A DNA stretch of 64,000 nt from NCBI GenBank assembly GCA_963726745.1, contig CAVSDR010000003.1, forward strand, positions 768,001 through 832,000, in the 5' to 3' direction. The notes below the pieces were generated by a model that was not told the origin of the DNA, did not search any database, and saw only the letters and a program-made list of their open reading frames with translations. This document shows, in pieces, positions 1 to 63,574 of the stretch. This DNA comes from an uncultured Verrucomicrobiae bacterium. Its GTDB lineage: Bacteria > Verrucomicrobiota > Verrucomicrobiia > Chthoniobacterales > UBA10450. The stretch's first letter is position 1. Every line of letters starts with the position of its first letter. Both the position numbers and the translations under genes were made by a program.

Positions 1-1004
1 GCGCGGCCACCAACCTCGTCGCCGGCCAGGTGGATGCGAACAGCTTCCAGGATGTCTTCCTGTGGGATCGGCTGAACGGCCAGACACGACTCGTTAGTCA
101 TGCGCTCGGCCAGCCGGCCACTGCGGGGAATGGTTTCTCGTTCGATTCCCCGCGCACCGGCACGCCCACGCTCAGCCCGGATGGACGCTTCGTTGCCTTC
201 GTTAGCTCCTCGAGCGACCTCGTCGCGGGGCAAAATGATCGCTTCGGCTTCAGCGGCGATCTCTTCCTCTACGAGACGAGCAGCGGGCAAAACATCCTCG
301 TGAGTCACCCTTATGATCGCGCCACCGGCGGCGGCAACAGCGGCTCGGGCGATTCCGAACACGTCGGCGGCCCGGTCTGGAGCGCCGACAATGCGCTGCT
401 TATTTTTGCCAGCCGCGCCTCCGATTTGATCGCGCAGGATCACAACAATCGCGAAGATGTCTTCGCGCTCGCGGTCGGGCCGGTCGCGCGGGTGGTCTCG
501 CGCCGGCAACACGGAGCCGGGGGTCCGTTTTTCGACGTGGACCTGCCGCTGAATGGCGCACCCGGGATCGAATGTCGCGCCGGCGGCAACTACTCGTTAG
601 TCTTTCAATTCCGCGGCCCGGTGACGACCGGCGCAGCCGCGATCACGGCAGGCACCGGCGCGATCGCCGGCACGAGCACCGATGGCAGCAGCGTGACCGT
701 GAACCTGACCGGCGTGTCCTCGCCGCAGCTCGTGCGCGTGAAATTAGCCGACGTGAATGACGGCCTCGCGCGCGCGGATGTGCAGGTGACCATGGCCGTC
801 GTCCTCGGCGACACCAACGCCGATGGCACAACCAATTCCGGCGACGCCCAGCAAACGCGCGGCCGCTCCGGGCAATTGGTCGAGGGCGAGAACTTTCGCT
901 CCGATGTGAACGCAGACGGCACGATCAATAGCGGCGACGCTTTCATCGTCCGGGCGCATTCCGGCGAAGGAATTTCCGCCACCGCGAGCAATGCGCGAAA
1001 GTAG
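1..1004 (+). CDS. Secreted TolB/PD40-like beta-propeller repeat protein with C-terminal dockerin-like domain (5' end outside window)
   Basis: Repeats like PTLSPDGRFVAFVSSSSDLV and PVWSADNALLIFASRASDL; duplicated dockerin-type Ca-loop motifs GDTNADGTTNSGD and SDVNADGTINSGD at the C-terminus; frame is open to the window edge. Confidence 0.75.
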   Translation, partial: AATNLVAGQVDANSFQDVFLWDRLNGQTRLVSHALGQPATAGNGFSFDSPRTGTPTLSPDGRFVAFVSSSSDLVAGQNDRFGFSGDLFLYETSSGQNILVSHPYDRATGGGNSGSGDSEHVGGPVWSADNALLIFASRASDLIAQDHNNREDVFALAVGPVARVVSRRQHGAGGPFFDVDLPLNGAPGIECRAGGNYSLVFQFRGPVTTGAAAITAGTGAIAGTSTDGSSVTVNLTGVSSPQLVRVKLADVNDGLARADVQVTMAVVLGDTNADGTTNSGDAQQTRGRSGQLVEGENFRSDVNADGTINSGDAFIVRAHSGEGISATASNARK

Positions 1005-1036
1005 CGCGTTGCCGGGCGCACTCACGCGAGGACGCT

Positions 1037-1612
1037 CTAGTTCGGCTTCCCGTCGCGCCCGCTGTTCGGGCGTTTGACGGTGAAGATGGTGATCGTGCGC
1101 GCCTGGTTGTCTGCCCCTTCGGCGACCACTCTAAACAGCGGCTGCTTCGGCCGGGCGACATCCCAGGCGACGACCTTTGCATTAGCAATCGGCGCTTTCT
1201 TGACCTCGCCGATCTTGTCGAACGCGAGTTCTTTCCCCGCGCGGAAAAAGCCGGTCATGTTGTTGACCCGTCCGGAGTCATCCGTCTTCAGAAAGATGGT
1301 GGAATAGGGGCCACCCTTCATTTGCCAGAGGACCTTGTAGGCGCCGCCTTCTCCCTCGTCTTCCTCGGTCTCCTGCTTGGTCGGTTGGCCGCCTTCCGCG
1401 AGCGGGTCGAGCTTCCGCCGCGCCGCCTCCACCGTGTCGCCTAATTTCACCCCCAGAAGCGAACCCATCACTTTGACGGTCTCGGCGTTGTGCAACCGCA
1501 CCGCATAGGGCGCGAGGCCGGAGGGGGCGGGCAGCGGCGAGGTTTCAGCGACCGTCTCCGCCTGCGCGTAAGGGACCGCGCAGGCGAAGAGGAGGGCGAA
1601 GGTTTTCTTCAC
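1037..1612 (-). CDS. Exported hypothetical protein
   Basis: Signal peptide MKKTFALLFACAVPYAQA; starts 8 nt after the stop of the 877-aa gene. Confidence 0.7.
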   Translation of the reverse strand: MKKTFALLFACAVPYAQAETVAETSPLPAPSGLAPYAVRLHNAETVKVMGSLLGVKLGDTVEAARRKLDPLAEGGQPTKQETEEDEGEGGAYKVLWQMKGGPYSTIFLKTDDSGRVNNMTGFFRAGKELAFDKIGEVKKAPIANAKVVAWDVARPKQPLFRVVAEGADNQARTITIFTVKRPNSGRDGKPN

Positions 1613-1620
1613 TGCGCGGT

Positions 1621-4275: not shown

Positions 4276-4962
4276 TCAGGCGCGGCGGCGCCGGGAATAA
4301 AGAGCCAGCGCGCTCAGACCGACGAGGCACAAGGCCACACTCCCCGGCTCCGGCACGGCGGTGCCGGTGAGGGAAAGCGTAGCGAAGATTTGCTGCGTTC
4401 CAGCGAGGTTCTGGTTCGGCAGGCGAAAGCCGTTGGACTGTGAGAGACCGGTGGTGTCGTAGATCGTGGCCACCAGCTGTCCATCCTGCAGGGCGGTGAG
4501 GAGCGCGCTCATGTTCGCCGGCGTGCCGGTGATCGTGAGCGTCACGTAATCTTTGTCCGCCAGGGCAAAGCTCGGGTCGTAATCGTTGAACCCATTCAGG
4601 AGCAACCCTTGCCCAAGATCGATTCCGTCGAGGCGCAGGCCTAACGAGTTTACGTCGAAGTCATCGTCGCCGTACTGCGCGCCATCCGGCGGATAGGGCG
4701 TATCCACGACCCCGTTCGAACCGAGACCAGTGTCGCCGTCGATGATCGTGAGCCGGATCGAGACCGAAGTGATGTCGAGCAATTGCGGCTGCAGCGCGAA
4801 ATTAAAAGCCGCCGCGGCGATCGGCGCCGACTGCCCGGCTCCGGTGGCGCCGTTGAAATTACTCTGGAGCTGGATGTCGCTGATCGTCGCCGCCGGCGAC
4901 TCCGCCAGCAGCCCTCCCGCGAGCACCCACGCCGCGGCAAAAAATACGCTCCGCTTCGTCAT
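4276..4962 (-). CDS. PEP-CTERM sorting domain protein
   Basis: Start revised to MTKRSVFF (ATG at 4962); C-terminal AVPEPGSVALCLVGLSALALYSRRRRA. Confidence 0.85.
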   Translation of the reverse strand: MTKRSVFFAAAWVLAGGLLAESPAATISDIQLQSNFNGATGAGQSAPIAAAAFNFALQPQLLDITSVSIRLTIIDGDTGLGSNGVVDTPYPPDGAQYGDDDFDVNSLGLRLDGIDLGQGLLLNGFNDYDPSFALADKDYVTLTITGTPANMSALLTALQDGQLVATIYDTTGLSQSNGFRLPNQNLAGTQQIFATLSLTGTAVPEPGSVALCLVGLSALALYSRRRRA

Positions 4963-6439: not shown

Positions 6440-7177
6440 ATGAAGCGCTTCTTTCCCTTTCTCCTCATCGCGCTCGTCGCCCTCGCCGCCGTCGCCGGTG
6501 GCGCGCTTTTCTACCGCGCGAAAGTGGCCGAGCTCACGCCCCAAGCGAAGGCCGGCACGACCGCCAGTGGCTCCCGCCAGGTCCATCTGCGCGGCAACCC
6601 GAAAGCGAAGGTCACCCTCAAGGAATTTGGCGATTTCCAGTGCCCGCCTTGCGGCATCCTCTCGGGTGTTCTCGCGCGCCTGGAGCACGATCTCGGCGAT
6701 GATCTCGCGGTCGTCTTCCGGAATTTCCCGCTCGAGATGCATCCGCATGCGATGGAGGCCGCCCTTGCCGCCGAGGCCGCCGGGGAGCAGGGAAAATTCT
6801 GGGAGATGCACGATCTCCTCTTCCGTAACCAAATCGCCTGGGCCAAGGAAACCGACGCCAAGCCGATCATCGAATCCTACGCGCGGGATCTCAGTCTCGA
6901 CCTCGAACGCTTCCGCAAGGATCTCGCCAGCCCCGCGCTTCGCGCCCGCATCGAGGAGGACAAGAAACTTGGCGACTCGTTAGGCGTCACCAGCACACCC
7001 ACCCTTTTCATTAACGACCAGCCGCTCGCGCCCTCGCACTTCAACGAGCCTTCGCTGCGCGCCGCCATTGCGGCTGCGCAACGCGGCGAAGCCGTCCCCA
7101 CCCCGCCGCCGCGCCCCTCGGTCCCGTCGCCGGTTTCCGCGACTCCGCCGCCGCTCGCGCCTACCCCGCAACCATGA
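6440..7177 (+). CDS. DsbA-family thioredoxin-fold protein
   Basis: EFGDFQCPPC active site, FRNFPL, GVTSTPTLFIN cis-Pro loop, N-terminal membrane anchor. Confidence 0.9.
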   Translation: MKRFFPFLLIALVALAAVAGGALFYRAKVAELTPQAKAGTTASGSRQVHLRGNPKAKVTLKEFGDFQCPPCGILSGVLARLEHDLGDDLAVVFRNFPLEMHPHAMEAALAAEAAGEQGKFWEMHDLLFRNQIAWAKETDAKPIIESYARDLSLDLERFRKDLASPALRARIEEDKKLGDSLGVTSTPTLFINDQPLAPSHFNEPSLRAAIAAAQRGEAVPTPPPRPSVPSPVSATPPPLAPTPQP

Positions 7178-7708: not shown

Positions 7709-10702
7709 GTGCAGCTGGAACTAGAATTGCAACCCGCGGAGCGCGCGCCCGTTCCCACTTTGCTCATCGCCGCCTCTCCCGAGACCGCGTGGCAAGGCGG
7801 TGCGGCGGAGTGGTTCGCCCGGGTCGCCGCGCAAGGCTGGCAAAGTGAACTCCCCGCGCTCGTCGTCGTGCCCACGCGCGGGCAGGCGCAGGCGCTCAAA
7901 GCGCGCGTTCTCTCCGCGGGGCACTCGCTCCTCGGTGTGGAATTTTTCACGCCGCAGTTGTTGCGCGCTTTCCTCGCGCAAAACGCCGAGATCGTTCCGC
8001 CGCCCGCGCAGCATCTCCGCCTTCTCCTGGCGCTCGCGGCGGAGGAGCGTCTCCAGGATTCCGCGCTCTCCGAAGCCGAACGCCTCGCAGCTGTTTCCGT
8101 CCGCCGCACGCCGGCGCATCTTCTGCGTTTGCTCGAGCAACTCGGCGCCGCTGGCTGGGATTTCGAGCGCGCAGACCTGCCGGCTTTCCAGGCCGTCGTG
8201 CAGAAATTTCGACAGCACCTGAAGGCGAATCATTTCGTCCTCACGCCGGAAGCGGATCGCGCGGCGCTGGCCCACGCACAGGGGCAACCGCCGCGCATCG
8301 GCGAGTTGCTCGTCTCCGGATTTCACGGCGCGCATTGGCCGTTGTGGCATTTGTTGCGCGGCGCCGTCGCGACCGCGAAACGCGCCACGATTCTCCTGCA
8401 ATATCCGCGCGACGCGGCCGCCGATCTCGACACTGCCTGGATCGGCGCGTGGGAAGACACCTACGACGAAGCCAAACCGATCGCGCACACGACCGATCCG
8501 GAACCGGCCCTGCGAACCACGCTCTTCCTCGCCGGCCTCGATCTTCAGGAGCAAGCAGTCGCGATCGTCGGCGCGGCCCAGCAATTTTTAGCCGACCAGA
8601 ATTGCACGCGCCTCGGCATCGTCGTGCCGGCGGCGGGCGCGCTTTCCCGCCGCGTAGCCGCCGCGCTCAACCGCGCCGGCCTGCCGCACTACGACGCCGT
8701 CGGGCAAATGGTTCCTGGATTGTTCGAAGCGCCGGACTTCTGGGCCTGGATGGAATTGCAACGCACCCCGCGTCTCCACGCCCTCCGGCGTTTCCTAACG
8801 AGTCTGCCCGCCGCGCACCCACTCTTCGCGAAAATCTCGCGCGAGCAGATTCTCCACGGCCTAACGAAAACGCTCGGAGCGCTCGCGCTCGACGATCTTC
8901 CGTTACTCACCGCTGCTACCAAAGCGGAGATCGGTCACGCGCTCGGCCAGCTGCAGTTTCTCCCGGCGCAGGCCACGCTCGCCCAGTTCCTCGCGCAGAC
9001 CGGCGCCGCTTTCGATGCGCTCGGATGGACCGAGCGCCGCGCGGAAGTTCTCCGGCAGAGCCAATGGGCGGACGGAGTGACCGCGACCGTCTCGCTCACG
9101 TTGTTTCTCAAATGGCTCGAGGAAATCGCGAACACCTTCCGCGTTGCGCGCGACCAACTCGGCGCGCACCCGTATGCGCGCATTCACCTGCTCACGCCCG
9201 CACAGGCCGAGGAGCAAACCTGGTCGCATCTCATCCTCGGCGGGATGAACGAGAACGCCTGGCCGGCCGCGGCGCGCGGCGATTTCCTCCCCGCCACGCA
9301 GGTCGATCAGCTCAACGCAACGGTGCGCAAACTCAATCGCGCGGCCACGCGCGAAGGCCGCCAGGGCGAAGGCCACGTCGCGCTGCGCGAGGGCAAAACC
9401 ATCTTCCTCGGCGCCGCCGAACAGCGGCAGCTCGCGCTCGCGCAGTTCTCCGGCTTGCTCGAATCCACCACGCACGGACTCGCGCTTACCGCCAGCGTGG
9501 TCCAGGAAGCCGCGCCCGAACGCCTCTCGAATCCGAGCGAACTTTTCAGCCAGCTTTATCATCAGGTCCACGGCACCGCGCTGTCGCAAAACGGCCTGCG
9601 CGCGTTGCGCGAGAACACGCGAGCGTGGATGGAGAAATCCGCCTTCCCGCGTGAATCTGCGCCGGACATCTCGCCGGCTATTTCCCAAACCGCCATCGCC
9701 TACCGCGCCCGCCGGCAATTGGCTGCGTCCGATGAATACGATTTCTCCCTAACGACACCACCCGCCGAAATCGAACCGATGCGCGTGAGCGACGTCGAGG
9801 CGCTTTTGCAAGCGCCCGCCCTCGTCTGGATGCGCCGCTTCCTCGGCGTGGAAGGCGCGGAAGATTCCACCTTCGCCTGGAACGCTTCCCTCGGATTGTG
9901 GACCCACGATTGGCTCGCGCGAATCCTGCCGCGGAGCGATCAATTCAGCGCGCTCCCGTCGCCTAACGAGTTCTCCAGCCTGATCGAAACCGCCGCCCGG
10001 CAGAAGCGCGCGCAAGTCCACGAACTTTGCCGACACCTCGGGAAAACCGTGCCCGACTGGTGGGAAAGCGGCTGGGAAAATGCGCACTGCCTGGCGCAGG
10101 TGCTCGGCCGCTTGCTCGGCACCGTCGAGGGTTGGAAGTGGGCCGTGCCCGAATGGAACCTCGCTGGCCAGCCGCTCGCCTTTGGCAAAGACCGCTCGCT
10201 CCTCGTGCGCGGCCGGGCCGATCTCTTGTTAGCCAAAACCGAGAGCGCGCCCGCTTCGCTCGCGGTTCCGGAATTGTGGATCGTCGACTTCAAGACCGGG
10301 AACAAAAAATCCCTCGCCAAACGCAGAGGCACTCCGGAACAACAGGAGAAGCGCATCATCAAAAGCGTGCTCAAGCGCGAAACGCTCCAACTCGCGCTCT
10401 ACGCGCATGCGGCCCACGCGCTCGGCGCTGAAGCTGTTGGCATCAGCCTGCTTTCGCCGCTCGTACGCGAAGCCGAGCCGCAAATGCAGCTCGACGACTT
10501 CGCCCCCGCGCTGCCCGCCTTCCGCGAACTCGCGCGCATGCAGGCAACTGGCAATTTCGGGATGAAAGGCGATCTGCGCGGCGCCTTCACTTTCACCGCC
10601 GATTACCCGCTGGCCACGCTCGCGGTCGATCGCGAAGTGCTCGACGAACGCTGGGAAAAAACGCACGCCGATCTGGCCTTGGACGAGGAGCCGTGGTTTT
10701 GA
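7709..10702 (+). CDS. addB: AddB-like subunit (degenerate helicase plus C-terminal PD-(D/E)XK nuclease)
   Basis: C-terminal VRGRADLLL...IVDFKTG...LQLALYA RecB-type nuclease motifs; immediately upstream of a UvrD-type helicase-nuclease. Confidence 0.7.
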   Translation: MQLELELQPAERAPVPTLLIAASPETAWQGGAAEWFARVAAQGWQSELPALVVVPTRGQAQALKARVLSAGHSLLGVEFFTPQLLRAFLAQNAEIVPPPAQHLRLLLALAAEERLQDSALSEAERLAAVSVRRTPAHLLRLLEQLGAAGWDFERADLPAFQAVVQKFRQHLKANHFVLTPEADRAALAHAQGQPPRIGELLVSGFHGAHWPLWHLLRGAVATAKRATILLQYPRDAAADLDTAWIGAWEDTYDEAKPIAHTTDPEPALRTTLFLAGLDLQEQAVAIVGAAQQFLADQNCTRLGIVVPAAGALSRRVAAALNRAGLPHYDAVGQMVPGLFEAPDFWAWMELQRTPRLHALRRFLTSLPAAHPLFAKISREQILHGLTKTLGALALDDLPLLTAATKAEIGHALGQLQFLPAQATLAQFLAQTGAAFDALGWTERRAEVLRQSQWADGVTATVSLTLFLKWLEEIANTFRVARDQLGAHPYARIHLLTPAQAEEQTWSHLILGGMNENAWPAAARGDFLPATQVDQLNATVRKLNRAATREGRQGEGHVALREGKTIFLGAAEQRQLALAQFSGLLESTTHGLALTASVVQEAAPERLSNPSELFSQLYHQVHGTALSQNGLRALRENTRAWMEKSAFPRESAPDISPAISQTAIAYRARRQLAASDEYDFSLTTPPAEIEPMRVSDVEALLQAPALVWMRRFLGVEGAEDSTFAWNASLGLWTHDWLARILPRSDQFSALPSPNEFSSLIETAARQKRAQVHELCRHLGKTVPDWWESGWENAHCLAQVLGRLLGTVEGWKWAVPEWNLAGQPLAFGKDRSLLVRGRADLLLAKTESAPASLAVPELWIVDFKTGNKKSLAKRRGTPEQQEKRIIKSVLKRETLQLALYAHAAHALGAEAVGISLLSPLVREAEPQMQLDDFAPALPAFRELARMQATGNFGMKGDLRGAFTFTADYPLATLAVDREVLDERWEKTHADLALDEEPWF

Positions 10703-13700
10703 GCGCTCCATCCGACCAGCGCGAGCGCGACCGTTTTGCCAGCGAGCTAAAGACGAATTTCTCCGTCGTCGCTTCCGCCGGCTCCGGCAAAACCACCGCG
10801 ATCACGAAACGCATCGCTGCGGTCGCACAATCCGCCGATGCGCTGACTGCTTTGCCGCGCCTTGTTGTGCTCACCTTCGCCAATCGCGCCGCCGATGAGA
10901 TGCAGCAACGCGCGCGTGAGGAAATCCTGCGCGCGCCAACCTTCGCCGGAAATTCTCGCCGCTTTCAACCGCGCCTGGTTCGGCACGATCCACGCCTTCT
11001 GTCTCAAGCTCCTGAACGATTACGGACATTCCTCGGCCTGCCCGCGCCGCTTGAGCTCGTGACCGACGACGAGGATTTGTGGACTGAGTTTGTCCAACAA
11101 CAGACGCACATTGGCCGCTCACTGCGCGCGGAGGATCGCACCGCGCTCCTGCGTTTCGCTTCCATCAGGAACATCATGGAACTCGGCCGCGGCGCCGACT
11201 CCGCGCTTCTGCGCCCTAACGAGTCAGGACCGTGCCCGCCGGTCGATGTCCAGCCAGTGTTGCAAATCGCTCGCGCCGCCAACCGGAAAAGCGAGGCGAT
11301 CGCGAACTCGATCGCGCAGCTGAAATCCTGGGAAGAAAACTATCGCGCCGGCGACGGGCTTCCTTCGCTGGCCCATCTGCTCGTCGACGACCCGGGAGAT
11401 CGTCGCGAGCTGGAACGAAGCCTTCATCCCCCTGCGCCGCTGGGTTAATCAAGCCGCCATCTGCGTGGCCGCAGAAGTGCAGCGCGATTACCGCAATTTC
11501 CGGCTCGAACGCGGCGTCGTGACCTACGCCGATCAGATCGCGCTCGCCGACGAACTCCTGCAGCATCCCGAAGCCGCGCGCCGCCTGCGCGAGCTCGATC
11601 ACCTCGTGATTCTCGACGAAGCGCAGGACACCGATCCGGCGCAGTTCTCCGTGCTTCTGGAAATCACCCGGCCGCCGGAAGCGACCGGCCGCTGGCTGGA
11701 GACCAAAGCCGATCCGCCGCGGCCCGGACACTTCTCCATGGTCGGCGATTTCCAGCAATCGATCTACGGCGATCGCGCCGACCTGCGGCATTATCGTCGC
11801 GTGCACGAGACGCTCGTCGCGACCGGCGCCGGCGAGGCGCTCAAGTTCTCCGTCACCTTCCGGCTCGACCAGGCGCAGCTCGATTTCGTTAACGCCGCCT
11901 TCCGCGATGTGCTGCACGGCGAGGGCGGGCAGGTGCCGTTCGTCGAGCTGCAGCCGCGTCCGACGGTCCTTCCCGGCCAGGTCCTCCGGCTGAATCTCGT
12001 CGCCGAAAATTTTCGGCGGAAAAGACAAACCCAAGGAGCGCCAGATCGCGCACCTCGAAGCCGCAGAGCTGGCGCGCTGGTTGAAAAAAAGCGGGCTCGC
12101 AAAATTGCGCGCGCGCACCTGGCGCGAGGTCGCGATTCTTTGCCCGCGGAAAGATTGGCTGCGGACAATGGCGGGCGCGTTGCGGCGGGAAAACCTACCG
12201 ATCGAGGTGCAATCGGAGAGCGACCTCCAGGCCGATTCGCCGGCCTACGCGTGGCTCACCGCGCTGTGCGTCATCCTGGTCGAGCCGCGCAATAGCTACG
12301 AAATCGTCGGCGTGCTTCGCGAGGTTTACGGCATCTCCGACAACGATCTCGCCGTTTTCGCCGAGGGGCACGGCGCGCGTTTTCAAATCGAAGAGCCAGT
12401 CGCGGCCGCGGGTGTCGTCTCTTCGACGCTCGCGGAACTGACCGCGCTGCGAGCGGAAGTGCATCGGCCTGCCGCTCTTCGCCGCGGTCGAACAGATCAT
12501 CGCCCGCACCGCGTTGCGCGCGCGCATCGCCACGCTGCCGGGGGAAGATTTCAAGGAACCGCTGGCCGATCTCGAATCGCTCCTCACGCTCGCCGCCGAC
12601 GCCGCCGCCAACGGCGCGACCCTGGCGGATTTTGCCGACAACCTCCGCTCCGAGATGGAACGCCCGCGCGCTGTCCGCCTCTCCGACCGCGACGCCATCC
12701 AACTCATCACCGCGCAAAAAGCAAAAGGCTCCGAATGGGACGTGGTCATCGTGCCGTTTCTCGGCCGGCGAATCGTGGATGCGCCGCCGCGTTATCCGTC
12801 GCTCATGAAACGCCCCGGCAGCGACGAAGTCTTCGCCGCCTTGCACAAGGAAGATTACGAAGACGAGGCGCGAAAGATTTCCAAAATCCTGAAGCGCCAG
12901 GAAATGGAGCGCCTGCTTTACGTCGCGCTCACCCGCGCGCGGCACACGCTCGTGCTCGCGCTCGACCATGAACTCTTCGCCAATTCCGAAGGAAAATTGG
13001 TCGACAACTCGCAGCTCAAATTTCTTCACGGCCCGGATGAGCCCGCCAAGACCGCATTGCTCGAAACGCTGGCGATCAATCCCGCGGCCTGCGCGCAAAC
13101 GACCGCGCTCTGGACCGAAAAGCTGAACCAGCAATTTCCCGCGCCTGCTCCGCTCGCGCCGCTCAACGCTGCTGCCTTAAGCCGCGCGCGAAAACAAGCC
13201 GGCCACTTCGTCCGCAAACAAAACCCGAGCGCCTTCGATCCCCCGGCCGATCGCCCGGCGACCCAGGCCAACCGCTCGTTAGCCGACAACCCGGCGACGC
13301 TCTACGGCAGTTGGTGGCACGGGCTATTCCAGCATTTCCCGTGGAAGAGCGGTCCGGCCCAGCGCGAGACCGCCTTCACGACTTTGCTCCCGGATTCACC
13401 TGATCCGAAACGCTCCGCGGAAGAATGGAAACGACTCCAGGCATCCCTGGAAAAATCCGCGCTCGCGGAATTCCTCCAGCGCCCCGGCGTGCTCGTGCAC
13501 ACGGAATACCCGTTCCTCTGGCGCATGTCCGAGCGCAGTTGCGTCGAAGGCGTGATCGATCTCCTGCTGATCGACCCGGGGGCGCGGCGCTGTCTTCTGC
13601 TCGACTGGAAAACGAATACCGCGAAGAAGGGCGACGCGGAAATCTTGCGCGCGCGTTATCTTGCCCAGATTGCCGCCTATTGGCGCGCCGTCTCCCACTT

Positions 13701-21091: not shown

Positions 21092-21109
21092 CGAGTCCAG
21101 CCGCCGCCC

Positions 21110-46161: not shown

Positions 46162-46172
46162 CGAGTCGTCTC

Positions 46173-53245: not shown

Positions 53246-53461
53246 ACCGAGGCGAATAGCAATAATGATTCCCAAGAGAAACAGATGGAATCCTGCAGCT
53301 CGCGAACTGCTAGATAACCCATTCATTTCCTTTTGGTTAGAACCTATAGTGAAATTTTTTGGCGGATTCCGGAGCCGTTCTCACATCTGCAAATCCGTAA
53401 AAATGGCCGACACTTTCTTGCGAAGACGCGTCTGCGGGGAGGTGGCTAACGAATCTTGCAC

Positions 53462-56653: not shown

Positions 56654-58180
56654 GTGGAGACGATCTGGATATTAGGCGACCAGCTCTCGCCGGAGCATGC
56701 CGCGCTCGCGCGCGCCAGACCCACGGATGCGCGCGTGCTCATGGTGGAATCGAAGGCGCGCGGCTCGGCGCTGCGTTATCACAAGCTCAAGCTCGTGCTG
56801 GTTTACAGCGCGATGCGGCACTTCGCGGCGGAGCTGCGTGCGCAGGGCTGGACGGTGGATTATCAACCACTCGAGACGAACGCGACTTTTGCCGACGGGC
56901 TGCAGCGTCACCTGAAGAAATTTCGCCCAACCAAGTTGGTCCTGGCCGAGCCCAACTCGTTTGCCGAAACAGACGCGGTCACAAAACTGGCGGCGAAGTT
57001 TTGCATTCCACTTGAACTGCTGCCGACCACGCAGTTTCTCCTGCCGCGCGCGGATTTCCTCGACTGGGCCGGCGGTTCGAAGCGCCTCCTGATGGAGAAT
57101 CATTACCGACGAATGCGGAAACGCTTCGGCTGGCTGATGGACCAGAAGGGCGAGCCAGTTGGTGGTGCGTGGAATTTCGACGCAGAGAATCGCGCGACCT
57201 TCAACAGTTGGAAACGCGCGGACCGCCCGCGCCCGAAGAGCGCGCCGCAGGAAAAGCCGGATGAGGTCACCCGCGAGGTCATGGAAATGGTGACGCGTGA
57301 ATTTCCGGATCATCCGGGCAAGGTCGAGGAGTTTTGGCTGCCAGTGGATCGCGCGGGCGCGCGCCGTTGGCTGCGGCGGTTCATCCAGGAAGCGCTGCCT
57401 AACTTCGGCGCCTACGAAGATCTGATGGTGGCAGGCGAGCCGTTCCTTTTTCACTCCGTGCTTTCGCCGATGCTCAACCTCGGCCTGCTCACTCCGCGCG
57501 AGTGTATCGAGGCCGCGATCGTCGCCTACGAGAAGAAAGCTGCGCCGCTCAATTCGGTCGAAGGATTCGTTAGGCAGATCGCCGGCTGGCGGGAATTCAT
57601 CAACGGGGTCTACTGGCTGCGCGGACCGGACTACAAGAATTTGAACTCGTTAGGTGCCACGCGTCCGTTGCCGGTGTGGTTCAACAGCGGGGAGACGGAG
57701 ATGAATTGCCTCCACCAGGTCATCGGGCAAACCCGCACCCTCGGCTGGAATCATCACATCCAGCGGCTCATGATCCTGGGCAATTTTCTACTGCTGAGCG
57801 GAATCAATCCGCAAGAGGCGCTGCGCTGGTTCAACGAAATGTATATCGACGCCTACGACTGGGTGATGGCGGCGAATGTCATCGGCATGGCGCTGCACGC
57901 CGATGGCGGCTTCATGGCCACGAAGCCTTACGCCGCGAGCAGCACCTACATCAATCGCATGAGCGATTACTGCGCCGGTTGCCGCTTTCAGCCGGCGCTC
58001 AAAACCGGGCCCGACGCTTGCCCGTTCAATTATCTCTACTGGCACTTCATCGATGAGCACGCGGACCGCTTTGGGAAAAACCCGCGCATGAGCACAATCG
58101 TCGGTGGCTGGCTGCGGCGGACGGACGCGAGCAAGCAAGCGGTGCGCGATTCCGCGGGCGCTTTTTTGAAGCAGCTGTAA
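56654..58180 (+). CDS. FeS-cluster bacterial cryptochrome/(6-4) photolyase (FeS-BCP, PhrB/CryB-like)
   Basis: ILGDQL, HKLKL..SAMRHFA, MENHYRRMR, GG.WNFDAENR, EGFVRQIAGWREF, MNC, HHIQRLM, KPYAAS, SDYCAGC, ACPFN (four Cys ligands). Confidence 0.92.
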   Translation: METIWILGDQLSPEHAALARARPTDARVLMVESKARGSALRYHKLKLVLVYSAMRHFAAELRAQGWTVDYQPLETNATFADGLQRHLKKFRPTKLVLAEPNSFAETDAVTKLAAKFCIPLELLPTTQFLLPRADFLDWAGGSKRLLMENHYRRMRKRFGWLMDQKGEPVGGAWNFDAENRATFNSWKRADRPRPKSAPQEKPDEVTREVMEMVTREFPDHPGKVEEFWLPVDRAGARRWLRRFIQEALPNFGAYEDLMVAGEPFLFHSVLSPMLNLGLLTPRECIEAAIVAYEKKAAPLNSVEGFVRQIAGWREFINGVYWLRGPDYKNLNSLGATRPLPVWFNSGETEMNCLHQVIGQTRTLGWNHHIQRLMILGNFLLLSGINPQEALRWFNEMYIDAYDWVMAANVIGMALHADGGFMATKPYAASSTYINRMSDYCAGCRFQPALKTGPDACPFNYLYWHFIDEHADRFGKNPRMSTIVGGWLRRTDASKQAVRDSAGAFLKQL

Positions 58181-58270: not shown

Positions 58271-58681
58271 ATGAAGGTCGAAATTTTTACGCTTTGCGAT
58301 GCCGCCACGGCCGATGCCGGCGGGAAACTAAACATCCTCGGCTCGTTCGATCGCCTGCATGCTGCCTCCGTGCCGGTGACCCATCCGCTCTGCGCCTTGG
58401 CAATGAAATTGCGCTTCGAGAAACTGGAGGAAGGACAGAAGCGGGTGCGCATTTCCTTCATGGATTCCGACGGCACGGCGGTGATGCCGACGCTCGACGC
58501 GGCCACGCAGGTTTCCTTCCCGCCGGAGGAACACAGCGTAACCGCCTGCCTGGTCCTGCAGATTCAACAACTCAAGCTGCCGAACTACGGAGAATATTCG
58601 ATCGATCTGGCGATCGACGGCCGGATCGAGGCGACCGTGCCACTGTTCGTTAGACCGGTGCCGGGCGCGCCGGCTGGTTAG
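58271..58681 (+). CDS. Conserved hypothetical protein (DUF6941-like)
   Basis: LCDAAT...GKLNILG.FD, G.YSIDL.IDG. Confidence 0.65.
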   Translation: MKVEIFTLCDAATADAGGKLNILGSFDRLHAASVPVTHPLCALAMKLRFEKLEEGQKRVRISFMDSDGTAVMPTLDAATQVSFPPEEHSVTACLVLQIQQLKLPNYGEYSIDLAIDGRIEATVPLFVRPVPGAPAG

Positions 58682-60441
58682 GTCTTCGGTTTCGCTTTCG
58701 TCGCGATCCAGGCGTCGACGTTGCGCTCGAGAAGATCGAGCGGAACCGCGCCGGAAAGCAGGACAACATCGTGAAACTCGCGCAGGTCGAACTTCTCGCC
58801 GAGCGCGCTCTGCGCACGCCCGCGCAGCTCCTTGATCTTCAGCTCGCCGATCTTGTAGGCCAGGGCCTGACCGGGCATGGAGATGTAGCGATCGATCTCG
58901 TTGACGATGTCCTGCTCGGTCTTGGCGGCGTTTTCCTTGAAGAAATCGATCGCCTGCTGCCGGCTCCAATGTTTCACGTGCATCCCGGTGTCGACCACCA
59001 GGCGCACCGCGCGCCACATCTCGTAGGTTAATTGCCCGAACTTCGAATACGGATCGTCATACAGGCCCATATCTTCGCCTAACGACTCCGCGTAGAGCCC
59101 CCAGCCCTCGGTGAACGCGGTGTAGCCGCCGAACCGGCGGAACTTTGGGATCTCGCCCAGCTCCTGCGCGAGTGCGATTTGCAGGTGATGCCCGGGCACG
59201 GCCTCGTGCAGGGAAAGCGCCATCATCTCCCACTTCGGCCGCGTCTCCGGCTTGTAGAGATTCACGTAGTAGCTCCCGGCGCGGGAGCCATCGGCCGCCG
59301 GGCCGTTGTAATAGGCGGTCGTGGTATCGGGCGCAGTTTTGTCCGGAATGGGCACGACGCCGTAAGGCGTGCGCGGCAAAGTCTTGAAGACCTTCACCAG
59401 GTTGGGATCGATCCGCTTGGCCAGGGCGCGGTAGCCTTGCAGGAGCTCGTCGGGCGTCTTGTAGAAGAACTGCTCGTCCGTCCGGAGCTTGGTGAAAAAC
59501 TCCTGCAGCGTCCCCTTGAACCCGACCTGGTCCATGATCGCCTGCATTTGCCCGCGGATGCGCGCGACCTCGCTCAATCCTTTCTGGTGAATCTCCTCGG
59601 GGGTCAGGTCGGTCGTGGTGTAGCGCCGGGCCAGCCAGGTATAAAGCGCGTCGCCCTGCGGCATCTGCCAGACGCCCACCTCGGGGAAGGCCGCCGGCAG
59701 ATACTCGCGATTGAAATACTCCTTCAGTTTCGCGAACGCCGGAACGATCCCGGTCTTGATCGCTTCCCGTGCGGCTTTCGTCAGGCGCTCGCGGTCGGCC
59801 GCGGAGATGTCGTTAGGCCATTTTTTGAAGGGCTTGAAAAACGGGGAGTCCTCCGGGTTCTCGACGATTTGTTTGTCGATCTGCGCCGGGACGCGCTCGA
59901 GCACGACCTTCGGCCACATGATCTTCGCCTTCACGCCCTCGCGCATCAGGGCGAGGTTTTGCTCCATCGATTGTGGGAATGTCTGGAGGCGCTTGAGCCA
60001 GTCCTCGTAGTCCTGCAACGTCTCGAAGCGCAGAAGCTCCGCGATCTCGTCGGCTGTCTGGATGCCGCCGCGCTGGTTGATCGGGAGGAGGAACATCCGG
60101 AAGGGATAACCGGCGATCTCGGTCTCGAGATTCTTCTGGAAGAGGTCGTAGTTCAGTTGGTCGGCCGGCGAGAGTTTGCTGCGGTCGAGCTTCTTCAATT
60201 CCTCGAGCGCAGCCTTCGTGTGCGCTTCCTGTTTCGCCTGCGCCTCCAGGCTGTCGTCGTCCCAGCGGTCGTTCCAACGGCGGTCGCCCAGGGTCGAGGC
60301 GCGGACCGGGTGTTGCTCCATGCGCCATTCCCACTCGCGGTCGAAAAACGCCTGCAAAGCTTTGCCGGCATCCTCCGGGGCCGCTTGGCCTAACGAGCGG
60401 AAAAGAGCAAGAGACAGCAGGATGAGCGCGGATTTTTTCAT
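58678..60441 (-). CDS. DUF885 family exported protein (metallopeptidase-like)
   Basis: Signal peptide; HEAVPGHHLQ, FTEGWGLYAE, RAVRLVVDTGMH, EIDRY..PGQALAYKIG. Confidence 0.9.
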   Translation of the reverse strand: MKKSALILLSLALFRSLGQAAPEDAGKALQAFFDREWEWRMEQHPVRASTLGDRRWNDRWDDDSLEAQAKQEAHTKAALEELKKLDRSKLSPADQLNYDLFQKNLETEIAGYPFRMFLLPINQRGGIQTADEIAELLRFETLQDYEDWLKRLQTFPQSMEQNLALMREGVKAKIMWPKVVLERVPAQIDKQIVENPEDSPFFKPFKKWPNDISAADRERLTKAAREAIKTGIVPAFAKLKEYFNREYLPAAFPEVGVWQMPQGDALYTWLARRYTTTDLTPEEIHQKGLSEVARIRGQMQAIMDQVGFKGTLQEFFTKLRTDEQFFYKTPDELLQGYRALAKRIDPNLVKVFKTLPRTPYGVVPIPDKTAPDTTTAYYNGPAADGSRAGSYYVNLYKPETRPKWEMMALSLHEAVPGHHLQIALAQELGEIPKFRRFGGYTAFTEGWGLYAESLGEDMGLYDDPYSKFGQLTYEMWRAVRLVVDTGMHVKHWSRQQAIDFFKENAAKTEQDIVNEIDRYISMPGQALAYKIGELKIKELRGRAQSALGEKFDLREFHDVVLLSGAVPLDLLERNVDAWIATKAKPKT

Positions 60442-62404: not shown

Positions 62405-62820
62405 GTTCGGCGAAAGATGCGCAGCAGTTGGTGCGCACGCGACGGGTCGGAAGCGAATTCGAAGACGGAGAAATCCGCCTCGAGAAACGAGGAAAAGCCC
62501 GGGAGCTCGCGCACCGGCGCGTCGTCGAGGGCGTTGAAACCCATCGACCACTCGGCGAAATCGCGCTCGGCCGAGTCGCCTTCGAGCAGCTTGGTCGCCT
62601 CGCGATGGCGCGGATCCGCCGCGATCCTTTCGTAGGTCGCGAGCACCGCCTCCTTCGGTCCTTCGAGCAGCTGCATGAACCGGCGCTTCCGATAAAGCAG
62701 CATTCCGGTAATGCCATCTCGCTGGTTATTTCGGCGGCTGGTCTCGAGAATGTCGACCAGGTCCTTCTCGGAGAGGTCGCCATTGGCGAGGCTTAGGTAG
62801 ATCAGAAAATGCACGGGCAC
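62401..62820 (-). CDS. Stand-alone BLUF blue-light sensor protein (GTG start 62820 or 62814)
   Basis: LIYLS, ILETSRRNN..GITGMLL, FMQLLEG, IAADPRH, R.FAEWSMGF (conserved Tyr, Gln, Trp, Met). Confidence 0.9.
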   Translation of the reverse strand: MPVHFLIYLSLANGDLSEKDLVDILETSRRNNQRDGITGMLLYRKRRFMQLLEGPKEAVLATYERIAADPRHREATKLLEGDSAERDFAEWSMGFNALDDAPVRELPGFSSFLEADFSVFEFASDPSRAHQLLRIFRRT

Positions 62821-62872
62821 CGCCCTATTTCGCAGCGCAGCACGTCCGCAGTTGCATGCTAGTTTCACGAAA

Positions 62873-63574
62873 ATGAGCCGCGCATTGGGAATCATCGGGG
62901 GCACCGGTCCGGAATCGACCGTGGAATATTATCGCCGCCTCATTGCGGCCTACCGCGCGCGAACGGTCGATGGCAGCGCGCCCGCGCTGGTGATCAACAG
63001 CGTCGACAACAAGCGCTTGATCGACTGGTTTACCCGCGGGGAAATGGAGCAGGCGACCGCTTATCTCGCGGTGGAATTGGAACGCCTGGCCGCGGCCGGG
63101 GTCGACTTTGCCATCATCTCGGCAAACACTCCGCATCTCGTCTTCGACGAGCTGCAACGGCGGGTCGCGTTGCCGCTGCTCAGCATCGTGGAAGCAACCG
63201 CGGATACGGCGAAACGCAGCGGCCTTCGGCGCTTTGCGCTCTTTGGCACCCGCTTCACCATGCAAGCGGCGCTTTTCCCGGAAGCCTTTGCGCTCCGCGG
63301 ACTCGAGATCGTGTCGCCTAACGAGTCCGAGCGGGAGTTCATCCACGGGAAATACATGGGCGAACTCTTCGTTGGGCAGGTTCTCGACCAGACGCGCGCG
63401 GCGCTGCTCGAGATCGTGGAGACGATGAAAGCGCGCGACGGCGTCGAGGCGCTGATTCTCGGCGGGACGGAGTTGTCGCTGCTTTTCCGCGAGCCGGTTG
63501 CCGCGGGCTTGCCGGTGCTCGACACCACGCAGATCCACGTCGAGGCGGCGATCGAGCGGCTACTGCGGCCCTGA
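62873..63574 (+). CDS. Aspartate/glutamate racemase-family protein lacking both catalytic cysteines
   Basis: GIIGGTGPEST..YY, ANTPH, GTRFTM, ILGGTEL, DTTQIH. Confidence 0.85.
   Translation: MSRALGIIGGTGPESTVEYYRRLIAAYRARTVDGSAPALVINSVDNKRLIDWFTRGEMEQATAYLAVELERLAAAGVDFAIISANTPHLVFDELQRRVALPLLSIVEATADTAKRSGLRRFALFGTRFTMQAALFPEAFALRGLEIVSPNESEREFIHGKYMGELFVGQVLDQTRAALLEIVETMKARDGVEALILGGTELSLLFREPVAAGLPVLDTTQIHVEAAIERLLRP

Follow-up and report, generated by a model that had tools for sequence, protein, structure and literature searches.

The genome of an uncultured Verrucomicrobiae bacterium (G000) is strewn with the short word GCCTAACGA(G), which reads (C)TCGTTAGGC on the opposite strand and constitutes a genome-wide "self word" of one soil Verrucomicrobiota family; its most likely cause, put forward tentatively, is a DUS/USS-type molecular drive that is linked to DNA transfer. 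The word came to attention in the window, a stretch of 64,000 nucleotides of this genome, in which a first-pass annotation had recognized a frame-independent DNA-level signal with a density like that of DUS, USS or HIP1. This part of the reading is borne out by codon-preserving shuffles and by orthologous sites, while the identity of the word with the R' end of integron attC sites and its recurrence in Gemmatimonadaceae had gone unnoticed. The annotation knew of no such motif for this lineage, and no published description came up here either: literature searches with the word strings returned only primers and unrelated papers, and a search for DNA uptake sequences in Verrucomicrobia gave nothing relevant among the matches listed.

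Abundance and DNA-level character of the word

All 50 copies of CTAACGA listed for the window (26 on the plus and 24 on the minus strand) were found at their coordinates, against a mean of 2.95 (sd 1.35, maximum 8) in dinucleotide-preserving shuffles, none of 100 of which reached 50. The rough expectation of ~4 was close to this mean, and the GC content of ~66% was slightly high (0.616-0.670 in 4-kb windows, 0.62-0.64 per contig). As had been described, most copies extend to G[CG]CTAACGA (31 of 50; 24 GCC and 7 GGC), often with G directly after CTAACGA (29 of 50). The enrichment is genuine and is confirmed genome-wide beyond the window: under an order-3 Markov model the nine-letter word occurs 1312 times in G000 against 19.7 expected and the 10-mer GCCTAACGAG 820 times against 6.1, and CTAACGA itself has 2025 copies (0.59 per kb). 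The substitution-intolerant bases are T[C/T]GTTAG. Flanks past ~11 bases are unconserved around the copies, and the word is thus no part of a longer repeat.

The word occupies all four stop-free frames on both strands, as well as stop codons and intergenic DNA, and the frame that reads TAA or TAG in phase is found at gene ends only. By our own crude gene calls, 41 of the window copies lie within coding sequences, 5 run across the stop codon that ends a gene and 4 fall between genes (Table 1). Coding sequences of the genome hold 914 copies, whereas 20 synonymous shuffles that preserve each protein and the codon usage of each gene give 21.1 (sd 4.6, maximum 29), so the enrichment survives this null as well. 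Of the TTA codons in the genome, 21.6% fall within the word core, as do 19.8% of the CTA codons. In 417 of 724 cases Ser-Leu-Gly is encoded as TCGTTAGGC, against 4.0 expected, and the tripeptides themselves are over-represented (SLG, 724 versus 460; PNE, 233 versus 97). These results support a frame-independent signal at the DNA level that makes use of rare codons.

Table 1. Copies of the word in the window, with the position of the CTAACGA match and its context by crude gene calls; two copies are marked as core only
Copy	Position	Strand	Context
GACTAACGAGT	91..97	-	in CDS, antisense
AGCTAACGAAG	199..205	-	in CDS, antisense
GACTAACGAGT	594..600	-	in CDS, antisense
GCCTAACGAGT	4641..4647	+	CDS 4276-5046(-), antisense
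GCCTAACGAGT	6977..6983	-	CDS 6404-7177(+), antisense
TCCTAACGAGT	8795..8801	+	CDS 7709-10702(+), sense
GCCTAACGAAA	8861..8867	+	CDS 7709-10702(+), sense
CCCTAACGACA	9749..9755	+	CDS 7709-10702(+), sense
GCCTAACGAGT	9963..9969	+	CDS 7709-10702(+), sense, other phase
CCCTAACGAGT	11216..11222	+	CDS 10693-11448(+), sense
GGCTAACGAGC	13276..13282	-	CDS 12514-13854(+), antisense
GCCTAACGAAG	13738..13744	-	CDS 12514-13854(+), antisense
GCCTAACGAGC	14522..14528	+	CDS 13855-15255(+), sense
CCCTAACGAGT	15294..15300	+	CDS 15255-16565(+), sense
GGCTAACGAAC	15916..15922	-	CDS 15255-16565(+), antisense; overlaps second word CTGGCTAA (15919-15926)
GGCTAACGAGT	16314..16320	-	CDS 15255-16565(+), antisense
GCCTAACGAGC	19855..19861	-	CDS 18972-20015(-), sense
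CCCTAACGAGT	21088..21094	+	TAA = stop codon of gene 20036-21091(+)
GTCTAACGAGA	21197..21203	-	CDS 21110-21826(+), antisense
CCCTAACGAGC	23301..23307	+	TAA = stop codon of gene 22600-23304(+)
GCCTAACGAGT	26074..26080	-	CDS 25799-26419(-), sense
GCCTAACGAAT	27304..27310	+	CDS 27169-27891(+), sense
GCCTAACGAAT	28126..28132	+	CDS 27849-28559(+), sense
CCCTAACGAGT	29579..29585	-	intergenic
AACTAACGATC (core only)	30123..30129	+	CDS 29958-31328(+), sense
CCCTAACGAGT	30594..30600	-	CDS 29958-31328(+), antisense
GGCTAACGAGT	31466..31472	-	intergenic
GACTAACGAGA	32232..32238	-	CDS 31548-32297(+), antisense
GCCTAACGAAC	36423..36429	-	CDS 36239-36991(-), sense
GGCTAACGAGT	36811..36817	+	CDS 36239-36991(-), antisense
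GCCTAACGAAG	37569..37575	-	overlaps stop codon of gene 37572-38783(-)
GCCTAACGACC	39336..39342	-	CDS 39040-40248(-), sense
GCCTAACGAGT	39477..39483	+	CDS 39040-40248(-), antisense
GCCTAACGAAT	40352..40358	-	overlaps stop codon of gene 40355-40909(-)
GACTAACGAAC	43799..43805	+	CDS 43384-44226(-), antisense
GCCTAACGAGC	44097..44103	+	CDS 43384-44226(-), antisense
CGCTAACGAAA (core only)	44596..44602	+	CDS 44258-44857(-), antisense
GTCTAACGAGT	46158..46164	+	TAA = stop codon of gene 45460-46161(+)
GGCTAACGACC	46718..46724	-	CDS 46492-47706(-), sense
GCCTAACGAAT	49068..49074	+	intergenic
GCCTAACGAGA	51181..51187	+	CDS 50774-51223(-), antisense
GCCTAACGAGT	52232..52238	+	CDS 51255-52454(-), antisense
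GGCTAACGAAT	53446..53452	+	intergenic
GCCTAACGAAT	57567..57573	-	CDS 56654-58180(+), antisense
ACCTAACGAGT	57647..57653	-	CDS 56654-58180(+), antisense
GTCTAACGAAC	58647..58653	-	CDS 58271-58681(+), antisense
GCCTAACGACT	59079..59085	+	CDS 58678-60441(-), antisense
GCCTAACGACA	59810..59816	-	CDS 58678-60441(-), sense
GCCTAACGAGC	60390..60396	+	CDS 58678-60441(-), antisense
GCCTAACGAGT	63318..63324	+	CDS 62852-63574(+), sense

Spacing, conservation and spread

The check for strand skew revealed no polarity: CTAACGA is balanced genome-wide (1034 plus and 991 minus, p = 0.35), 762 of 1507 neighbouring pairs share their orientation, and there is neither replication polarity across 50-kb bins nor a sign pattern along the ~1 Mb contigs. 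The 9-mer is spread evenly at ~20 copies per 50 kb, and close pairs are avoided, with 8 gaps of up to 50 bp (33.5 expected), 13 of 50-100 bp (32.8 expected) and 34 of 100-200 bp (63.4 expected), against 183 of 200-500 bp (174 expected). The deficit is weaker in five other family genomes pooled (29 versus 49.8 at <=100 bp), in which neighbour orientation is random too. Within a lower-GC exopolysaccharide island of 70 kb, 7 word cores are present versus 41.6 expected.

Comparison of G000 with the word-dense relative G013 (71% amino-acid identity) reveals that 34 of 85 orthologous sites are identical, against 9.6% of control windows, and that the mismatch spectrum of these sites is bimodal; among sites with unchanged amino acids, identity rises to 30 of 36 (control, 22.9%). 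The sparse relative G002 retains 1 of 53 sites (control, 10%). Across the 151 genomes and 36 genera sampled from the family, most genomes are enriched over the reversed-word control, and G079 carries 4336 copies against 78; in the genus of G000, each of the 18 genomes sampled shows enrichment. Four further genera use the same 9-mer with a genus-specific tenth base, and genus g19 has counts of only 0.5-2.6 times control; density ranges ~100-fold among genera and ~15-fold inside the genus of G000. Twelve sister families of the same order have 0-14 copies each and no enrichment. Outside the phylum, a Gemmatimonadaceae genome has a hyper-abundance of the 8-letter core (895 versus 87); of the five Gemmatimonadota genomes probed, it is the only one with the word. 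We also note a second hyper-abundant word in G000, GCTGGCTAA (479 versus 55), which is young and species-level.

Relation to integron attC sites

In sequence, the word and the R' crossover end of integron attC sites in this lineage are one and the same. The consensus of the attC R' core is GTTRRRY; the word contains GTTAGGC together with three inner attC bases, and its intolerant bases straddle the crossover point. The match to the attC sites of this order is seen in the arrays of G022 and in 15 attC-type sites of one array of G000, which carries 15 cassettes, and 24 of 25 attC-like sites from five family genera end in CTCGTTAG. Cassette arrays carry the word at ~2 per kb. In contrast to attC, however, the genome-wide copies stand without the rest of the site and demand a GC ending that attC does not. 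The commonest attC ending of the family, CTCGTTAGAT (11 of 25), does not occur once beyond the array (3.9 expected), whereas the GC ending, present in 4 of 25 attC sites, has 814 genome-wide occurrences; the other attC end, CTAACCA, is not enriched in G000 (74 versus 105.9 expected).

No integron integrase was found in G000 (best score 80 bits, cut-off 265, and none beside the array). An integrase over the cut-off is present in 88 of the 151 family genomes, versus 0 of 14 controls, and the sparse genera g21 and g28 have it in 10 and 9, respectively, of 13 genomes each. In the Gemmatimonadaceae genome G177, attC sites bear GCCTAACG at either end, and this very 8-mer, with a single conserved inner base, is the genome-wide word; in G175 and G176, which have an integrase, the 8-mer occurs just 21 and 35 times. 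By itself, the integrase is not what reads the word.

A proposed transfer drive and its alternatives

Among the three actions proposed by the first-pass annotation (uptake bias, methylation-linked repair and a nucleoid-protein site), the genomic signature appears to fit an uptake-type drive best. When relatives exchange DNA, one step would favour word-bearing fragments, most plausibly the binding of double-stranded DNA by the genome-encoded type IV pilus and competence machinery, and homologous recombination would then write word-bearing alleles into the chromosome where the protein tolerates them. Such a drive would give copies in all frames and orientations, short-range repulsion and absence from recently acquired DNA. 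The bias is inferred to act during uptake or transfer, with a competence or pilus protein as the putative reader. The competence-gene check found ComEC, DprA, a ComEA-like HhH protein, 3 secretins and 19 prepilin-type genes in G000. ComEC is present in 142 of the 151 genomes of the family, among them all 13 of g19, and in 10 of 14 controls, and its occurrence in low-word g19 and in controls deprives the competence genes of discriminating power. Uptake bias might further funnel cassette DNA into cells; at ~2 words per kb the arrays would be favoured, which could explain the coincidence of the word with the attC end.

Several observations are counted against the uptake drive. A plain DUS model predicts neither the identity of the word with the attC R' core nor the abundance of the 8-mer in a Gemmatimonadaceae genome, and this recurrence in another phylum is hard to square with a tag private to one lineage. 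The second hyper-abundant word lies in the same genome, and we know of only one word in each DUS/USS genome. Repulsion extends over only ~200 bp, which is probably shorter than kilobase uptake fragments would produce.

A reader of a different kind, namely the integron integrase or a host factor of the attC R-box, with the genomic copies as double-stranded secondary sites that this contact would maintain or multiply, is unlikely but carries some weight. The identity with the R' core and three inner bases, the intolerant bases around the crossover point, the agreement between the attC ends and the genome-wide 8-mer of G177, and an integrase that is unusually common in the family all speak for it, and integrases are described as able to use double-stranded genomic sites (bioRxiv 10.1101/2022.09.11.507474), although the attG sites described there need only GWT. 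Nevertheless, G000 keeps its 1312 copies with no integrase found, g21, g28, G175 and G176 have the enzyme but few copies, and the commonest attC ending of the family is missing outside the array, with the other attC end unenriched. No mechanism can be named by which a recombinase multiplies its own site within essential genes, and conversion initiated by cleavage should rather remove such sites. A HIP1-like process, in which a methyltransferase or sequence-specific mismatch repair biases conversion or repair so that copies would accumulate with no need of an uptake bias, or in which methylation of the word promotes transformation, as has been proposed for HIP1, is a somewhat weaker contender. 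It equally expects a lineage-restricted drive and depletion in foreign DNA, it shares the density, conservation and quasi-regular spacing described for HIP1 (PMC13756078), and the second word would suit the fast-changing specificity of readers such as methyltransferases. Against this, the word is non-palindromic, no Vsr endonuclease was found in G000, and repair bias would not be expected to produce close-pair repulsion. In a survey of C5 methyltransferases, the sole such enzyme occurs in 20 of 151 genomes and 10 of 36 genera, and its sequence identities do not track kinship; so patchy an enzyme cannot account for a family-wide word.

The even density, avoidance of close pairs, indifference to orientation and conservation among dense relatives are also what a binding site of a nucleoid or chromosome-organizing protein, selected for regular spacing, would display. 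The nucleoid-protein sites known so far are degenerate and much less numerous, density here varies ~100-fold among genera and ~15-fold within the genus of G000 with viability unaffected, two dense relatives differ at 60% of sites, and no candidate protein was identified for the word; we regard this reading as improbable. A Chi- or KOPS-type sequence that guides recombination or segregation resembles the word in being short, over-represented and of similar copy number, but polarity is lacking in the strand counts, in the neighbour orientation and along the contigs of G000, as well as in the neighbour orientation of five other family genomes, and the enrichment of ~67-fold is far above that of Chi; this reading is already close to refuted. 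Least credible, to the point of being negligible, are a systematic basecalling artefact and a repeat of the REP/MITE type. The miscall is rejected by the confinement of in-phase stop readings to gene ends, by presence in 151 genomes with enrichment across 36 genera and by the 34 of 85 identical orthologous sites, and the repeat by the unconserved flanks, the absence of hairpin-forming word pairs among the G000 copies and a search that yielded no Rfam family apart from one tRNA.

Comparison with known systems

The pattern has the genomic hallmarks of DUS/USS uptake sequences, with uptake as a candidate role. DUS of Neisseriaceae are read by the minor pilin ComP, and their inverted pairs frequently form terminators. 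Unlike DUS, the word shares its core with another phylum, forms no such terminator pairs (at a distance of up to 100 bp there are just 4 convergent and 6 divergent ones), and is accompanied by no ComP_DUS-family pilin over the cut-off in the profile comparison (best 21.9 bits versus 27.3). Like DUS, it is depleted in foreign DNA, resides in genomes with type IV pilus and competence genes, and is a family word of 10-12 bases with dialect variation at its ends; the dialects of DUS are described in PMC3630211. Uptake sequences are reported in PMC1939737 to occur in hundreds to thousands of copies, many within ORFs, with even spacing and no orientation bias. The word resembles the USS of Pasteurellaceae in being short, non-palindromic and present in ~1,300-1,500 copies (PMC1939737; PMC2817400), mostly in genes and in several frames, with no orientation bias and with spacing more even than random, and in being family-wide with dialects and shaping the proteome. 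It differs from USS in phylum and sequence, in its coincidence with an attC end, in the second word of G000, and in that no helically phased AT-rich flank is seen; the uptake preference here is a candidate one.

HIP1 of cyanobacteria, GCGATCGC, is a palindrome recognized by two known methylases, whereas the word is non-palindromic and no conserved methylase was found in the C5 survey. Both reach a density of roughly one per kb, show more conservation than codons require and recur quasi-periodically; HIP1 has been connected with transformation and put forward as an uptake recognition sequence (PMC13756078; bioRxiv 10.1101/2024.09.10.611283). The Gemmatimonadaceae word CGTTAGGC, for which word-string literature searches found no description in print, has the same 8-letter core and is likewise non-polar and scattered. 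It is the R-box arm of the attC sites of that lineage, as checked in G177 and G175, and is extended by [A/G]CC on the 3' side, in contrast to the 5' (A)CT in the lineage of G000.

Copy Number and Form of the Word

All 50 positions that the first-pass annotation had given for the 7-mer CTAACGA (TCGTTAG on the other strand) were found in the window at identical coordinates, 26 on the forward and 24 on the reverse strand. Dinucleotide-preserving shuffles of the window (n = 100) contain 2.95 copies on average and 8 at most, and none of the 100 reaches 50. The window corresponds to C3:768001-832000 of the source assembly G000 (3,406,779 bases in 7 contigs, 94.7% complete), which holds 2025 copies of this core, or 0.59 per kb. 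The annotation had also noted that orientation is balanced. Enrichment and balance both hold across the genome, where the 9-mer GCCTAACGA occurs 1312 times versus 19.7 expected from an order-3 Markov model, and where 1034 copies of the core lie on one strand and 991 on the other (p = 0.35). Under the same model, the 10-mer GCCTAACGAG is found 820 times versus 6.1 expected and GCCTAACGAGT 321 times versus 0.6, and versions of the word head the over-representation ranking at each length from 7 to 11.

Alignment of all copies in G000 reveals that the core is preceded by G (0.87) and C (0.75) and followed by G (0.64) and then T (0.44). Conservation stops about 11 bases out and nothing farther in the flanks is conserved, which makes this a self-contained word, 9 to 11 bases long, rather than a fragment of a longer repeat. 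A REP or MITE repeat, with its longer conserved unit and usual hairpin, is excluded by this limit, and the rarity of inverted pairs at close range also contradicts the hairpin. An artefact is excluded as an explanation of the word as well.

An Rfam search of the window returned a tRNA gene as its single match, and the protein clusters nearest to a window protein belong to Verrucomicrobiota. About 5% of the sampled words recur in just two sequencing runs, both from a single study. Their contigs, 88-95% alike, cover parts of window positions 8001-12000 including word sites, and have no bearing on the bases of the word. The annotation knew of no such motif for this lineage, and our literature search likewise found, among the matches listed, no description of the word for Verrucomicrobia, in a coverage that leaves most subscription journals outside and so does not prove its absence from print. 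The listed papers that contain the word's letters concern primers or unrelated subjects.

A Signal at the Level of DNA

Within our own crude set of gene calls (2598 genes, 83% of G000), the core occupies all four stop-free reading frames, and in the two frames that read TAA or TAG it is restricted to gene ends. Of the 2025 copies, 434 lie between genes and another 143 run across the end of one; the density is 0.74 per kb between genes versus 0.51 per kb within them. A synonymous-codon shuffle within genes, which keeps every protein and the codon usage of each gene, leaves 21.1 copies of GCCTAACGA (sd 4.6, maximum 29, n = 20) versus 914 observed, and this bears out the earlier claim of a frame-independent signal acting at the DNA level. 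We rely on this null, as a context-restricted codon shuffle (310 versus 914 observed) is a weak control in which most codons stay put.

The word also weighs on rare codons. TTA makes up 2.9% of leucine codons and CTA 1.5%, and 21.6% of all TTA and 19.8% of all CTA lie within the core. TCGTTAGGC encodes 417 of the 724 Ser-Leu-Gly tripeptides, where codon usage predicts 4.0, and CCTAACGAG encodes 143 of the 233 Pro-Asn-Glu tripeptides, where it predicts 7.5. Amino-acid composition alone would give fewer of either tripeptide (460 versus 724 observed, and 97 versus 233 observed), so the word has also nudged protein sequences. A proteome imprint is likewise described for the Pasteurellaceae uptake word USS (PMC2817400).

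The bases that the word requires were obtained by comparing single-substitution variants of CTCGTTAGGC (820 copies) with expectation. At position 1 (C), the variants G, T, and A reach 51, 56, and 6 times expectation, and at position 3 (C) the variant T reaches 39 times. Position 9 (G) tolerates C, T, and A (32, 33, and 17 times), and position 10 (C) tolerates G and T (40 and 9 times). Variants remain at 0-6 times expectation at position 2 (T) and at 0-2 times at positions 4-8 (GTTAG). The part that the word cannot do without is T[C/T]GTTAG, the 7-mer of the first-pass annotation.

Distribution along the Chromosome

The word has no polarity. Neighbours share orientation in 762 of 1507 pairs (p = 0.68), and 50-kb bins hold about 20 copies of the 9-mer each without single-strand runs. 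Orientation is unskewed with replication and patternless along the contigs, and this absence of polarity excludes polar signals of the Chi or KOPS type. Terminator-like inverted pairs are absent in G000, where only 4 convergent and 6 divergent pairs lie within 100 bp.

Close copies repel each other, with a reach of about 200 bp. Gaps between neighbours of up to 50 bp number 8 versus 33.5 expected, those of 50-100 bp 13 versus 32.8, and those of 100-200 bp 34 versus 63.4, while gaps of 200-500 bp (183 versus 174) lie near expectation. In five other genomes of the family, pooled, the deficit is weaker, with 29 gaps of up to 100 bp versus 49.8 expected (P = 0.001) and 77 of up to 200 bp versus 95.5 (P = 0.03).

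The longest word-free stretch is situated within C7:30-100 kb, a region of GC 0.58-0.62 with 7 cores versus 41.6 expected (P = 4e-11). Surface-polysaccharide islands of the kind found there are often swapped among strains. The locations of this and other features are collected in the table below.

Locations of features in the source genome (G000) and in relatives
Feature	Location	Strand	Description
tRNA gene	window 38914-38986	-	Rfam match
Second word, (G)CTGGCTAA(W)	window 15919, 16338, 24593, 26046, 28622, 33275, 38760, 43718, 53783, 54077, 54440, 62045		8 bases each
C5 DNA methyltransferase gene	C5:212447-214066 (L288:1471-3093)		the only one in G000
Cassette array	C6 about 736,570-744,900	one orientation	15 attC-type sites at intervals of 350-1200 bases
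Surroundings of the array	C6:737,459-745,361		no ordinary genes called; right neighbour a 556-residue symporter-like gene
C7 island	G000:C7:28001-104000		exopolysaccharide or O-antigen-like, nearly free of main and second word; exosortase EpsH, many glycosyltransferases, Wzy, Wzz, DegT-type aminotransferases, Poly_export, 1869-residue surface protein
Word-free interval, 13.6 kb	G000:C3:1022430-1035984		among the longest; GC 0.61-0.62; prepilin-type gene cluster
Word-free interval, 11.6 kb	G000:C6:622689-634302		among the longest; GC 0.61-0.62; prepilin-type gene cluster, about 2 kb from dprA
Family integron integrases (examples)	L244-L247, L249:694-1716
Four word copies in 2.5 kb, coding-like	G022:C2 about 640.6-643.0 kb (L227:2080-4510)		near contig end
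Abundant AAGATCGACA	G056:C2:1-100000 (L270-L274)		genus g39
Abundant run-of-A 10-mer	G093:C13:1-100000 (L265-L269)

Spread among Relatives

The 10-mer is enriched in all 18 sampled genomes of the genus, with 51 to 1404 copies versus 10-57 for reversed-word controls, and occurs 0-14 times in 12 genomes from 12 other families of the order. Across the family (151 genomes, 36 genera), most genomes exceed their reversed-word control, over a wide range. Genus g38 carries 1442-4336 copies of the 9-mer, the maximum being that of G079 (4336 in 3.2 Mb, control 78), and genera g16, g31, and g39 are dense too. Genus g19 has 22-198 copies with controls of 28-77, and G053 (13 versus control 29) and G063 (60 versus control 79) are at background level. 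The tallies on relatives include the unpublished genomes G001, G008, G032, G036, G043, and G162, of which no individual count is given here, and the conclusions are unchanged without them.

Samples of 100 kb from g38, g16, g31, and g39 yield the identical 9-mer, TCGTTAGGC, at 0.51-0.85 per kb, with a tenth base that varies by genus, which points to dialects at one end of the word. No other dialect was found in the sparse relative G002, where this 9-mer continues to rank first (21 versus 1.0 in 400 kb).

Conservation of individual sites was assessed in protein-guided codon alignments of 202 orthologues with the dense relative G013 (amino-acid identity 0.71) and 148 with G002 (0.68), in which third positions are 58-59% identical where the residue is kept. 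With G013, 34 of 85 sites are identical (control windows 9.6%), including 30 of 36 with residues kept (control 22.9%). With G002, 1 of 53 sites is identical (control windows 10%), and 1 of 14 with residues kept (control 25.1%). Apart from 8 sites, the comparison with G013 gives either no mismatch or at least 3 per site; dense lineages therefore hold their sites as whole words, gained or lost as units.

Identity with the Crossover End of Integron attC Sites

The few matches of the 10-mer in G022, a genome of another family of the same order, are integron cassette arrays, with attC sites about 100 bases long that are spaced by 400-900 bases. On the strand of the cassette ORFs, these sites start with GCCTAACCA and end with CTCGTTAGGC; CTCGTTAG is terminal in the attC sites of G022, G147, G000, and others. 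The consensus of the integron R' core is GTTRRRY, and the crossover point lies between G and TT. Judged from the reading of the attC strand, the word is this R' core plus three inner bases of the lineage's attC sites, CTCG|TTAGGC. The crossover point falls midway in the substitution-intolerant core. Sites were sought with a fold-based and later with a signature-based filter. The family yielded 25 attC-like sites (nine loci, five genera), of which 24 carry the terminal CTCGTTAG; their last two bases are AT in 11, GT in 7, GC in 4, and AC in 3. A literature search on integron attC sites in Verrucomicrobia and Gemmatimonadetes gave two unrelated papers and no account of the word.

Two side observations concern these sites. 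One attC type is common to several genera of the family and a neighbouring family. G022, in which the word is otherwise confined to integron arrays, has one further piece with four copies (see table) that may have been acquired from the word-bearing family or been misbinned.

G000 itself contains one cassette array, on contig C6, with 15 attC-type sites like those of G022. An integrase ORF was not found beside it, and the array is thus a CALIN; nor was an integron integrase found anywhere in the assembly (best match 80 bits versus a cut-off of 265). The full attC structure, an R''-L''...L'-R' folding inverted repeat within an array, is limited to the 15 sites of this array. The remaining copies, about 1300, are not attC sites, as their flanks are unconserved, the R'' side is not enriched, and no intI was found in G000. 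For the other attC end, CTAACCA occurs 74 times versus 105.9 expected. In the rest of the genome, the two bases after CTCGTTAG are GC (814), CC (166), GG (99), TC (81), AC (53), or GT (29), and AT in 0 cases versus 3.9 expected. In the family, integron integrases exceed the TIGR02249 cut-off in 88 of 151 genomes versus 0 of 14 control genomes, and matches at E <= 1e-40 occur in 28 of 36 genera. These unusually common integrases often lie at contig ends, and several have internal stops.

Recurrence in Gemmatimonadaceae

Five Gemmatimonadetes genomes, reached via a published Gemmatimonadetes primer (PMC9530729), were probed. The Gemmatimonadaceae genome G177 holds 895 copies of GCCTAACG (control 87), and the remaining four hold 9-35 (controls 110-317). 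The reverse complement, CGTTAGGC, occurs 84 times in 300 kb of G177 versus 3.3 expected. An apparent strand polarity in this genome was rejected, since 180 kb of its sequence contain 26 forward copies and 28 reverse ones. Conserved flanks are C preceding GTTAGGC and [A/G]CC after it; the word is thus extended on the side opposite to that of the Verrucomicrobia word. The attC sites of G177 carry GCCTAACG at both ends. Together with the counts, these ends confirm that an 8-letter core is shared across phyla and is identical to the local attC R-box arm. An integron integrase is present in G175, G176, and G177, and the genome-wide word in G177 only; the integrase is insufficient here too.

Possible Readers and Function

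By analogy with the uptake words of Neisseriaceae (DUS) and Pasteurellaceae (USS), the word may work like an uptake sequence, a reading that we hold to be quite possible, if short of probable. All genomic hallmarks of DUS/USS are present, namely copy number, frame independence, lack of polarity, more-even-than-random spacing, proteome imprint, family-wide dialects, depletion in foreign DNA (one island), and whole-word turnover. This comparison is based on PMC1939737. G000 encodes a competence set comprising ComEC (849-residue frame), DprA, a small ComEA-like HhH protein, three secretins, and 19 prepilin-type genes. Such competence genes are common in bacteria, and the defining functional feature of DUS/USS is that competent cells preferentially take up DNA bearing the word. 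ComEC is rejected as the discriminating reader, since 142 of the 151 genomes sampled in the family encode it, among them every one of the 13 from the word-poor genus g19. No pilin passes the ComP_DUS cut-off of 27.3 bits, the best score being 21.9.

Four features exceed what a plain DUS model covers or run counter to it: the match to the crossover end of attC, the recurrence in a second phylum, the short-range repulsion, and the presence in G000 of a further word of recent origin. The first could point to a reader inside the cell that is linked to the integron, which we consider unlikely. The integrase is rejected as a necessary reader, as none was found in the assemblies of the dense genomes G000, G088, and G067, and as a sufficient one, as it is present in the sparse genera g21 (10 of 13 genomes) and g28 (9 of 13 genomes). 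Either the integron integrase does not read the word at all, or it does not do so by itself. A methylation or repair drive of the HIP1 type appears improbable. HIP1 is a palindrome targeted by conserved methyltransferases, whereas the present word is non-palindromic, Vsr was not found in G000, and the single C5 methylase is patchy. This enzyme is rejected as the reader, since only 20 of 151 genomes have it and its sequence identities are at odds with kinship; they amount to 81% for a genome of another genus and 64% for one of the same genus, and the gene is hence probably mobile. That the word marks a nucleoid site is more doubtful still.

The uptake reading could be joined to the attC identity if self word and integron crossover site were one signal in at least two soil phyla, in the Verrucomicrobiota family and in some Gemmatimonadaceae, a proposal to which we give little credence at present. 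The DNA-import machinery would have adapted to recognise the R' end of attC sites from its own lineage, transformation would preferentially import gene cassettes, with a word about every 500 bp, and the spread of that word across the core genome would follow as a by-product of molecular drive. In Vibrio cholerae, transformation supplies cassettes to the chromosomal integron (PMC12614218).

A word with the genomic signature of DUS/USS is found in no fewer than 36 genera of a soil family that is abundant and for the most part uncultured. To our knowledge, sequence-tagged self DNA has been established experimentally in Neisseriaceae and Pasteurellaceae only, and was lately proposed for cyanobacterial HIP1. 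A function in uptake would extend self-DNA tagging to one more phylum and to the soil, a habitat in which exchange of DNA is difficult to follow. We know of no current model that predicts the integron-core coincidence, repeated in a second phylum, and it offers a concrete, testable handle on mechanism. If uptake word and crossover site were indeed one signal, DNA-uptake specificity would be linked to integron cassette capture, and these would be the first uptake-type sequences beyond Proteobacteria, the HIP1 proposal aside. Word density differs by roughly 100-fold between relatives, and this range and the young second word provide contrasts for finding the reader by phylogenetic correlation, an approach already applied to HIP1 (PMC13756078). 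The word can also serve as a marker of native versus foreign DNA, and of misbinned contigs in metagenome-assembled genomes.

Other Abundant Words and Repeats

The second word occurs 12 times in the window versus 0.54 expected and 514 times in G000, where it uses either strand and more than one frame; as far as 8 positions upstream, bases are conserved more weakly. Its left half, G[GC]CTAA, is also that of the main word. Counts of GCTGGCTAA are 479 in G000 and 127 in G015, with controls of 55 and 47, and do not exceed the control in any of the 14 remaining genomes sampled from the genus, of which two are unpublished; its rise in G000 and G015 alone marks it as a young, species-level word.

In G056, AAGATCGACA occurs beside the main word 164 times in 100 kb versus 1.1 expected. 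The 12-mer GTTGGCGTTGGC and its shifts number about 145 across G000 versus 0.5 expected, as though the assembly contained a tandem repeat with a hexamer unit. The run-of-A 10-mer of G093 reaches 428 copies in 100 kb versus 5.2 expected; these counts reflect at least one poly-A/T tract of great length, which may be an oddity of the assembly.
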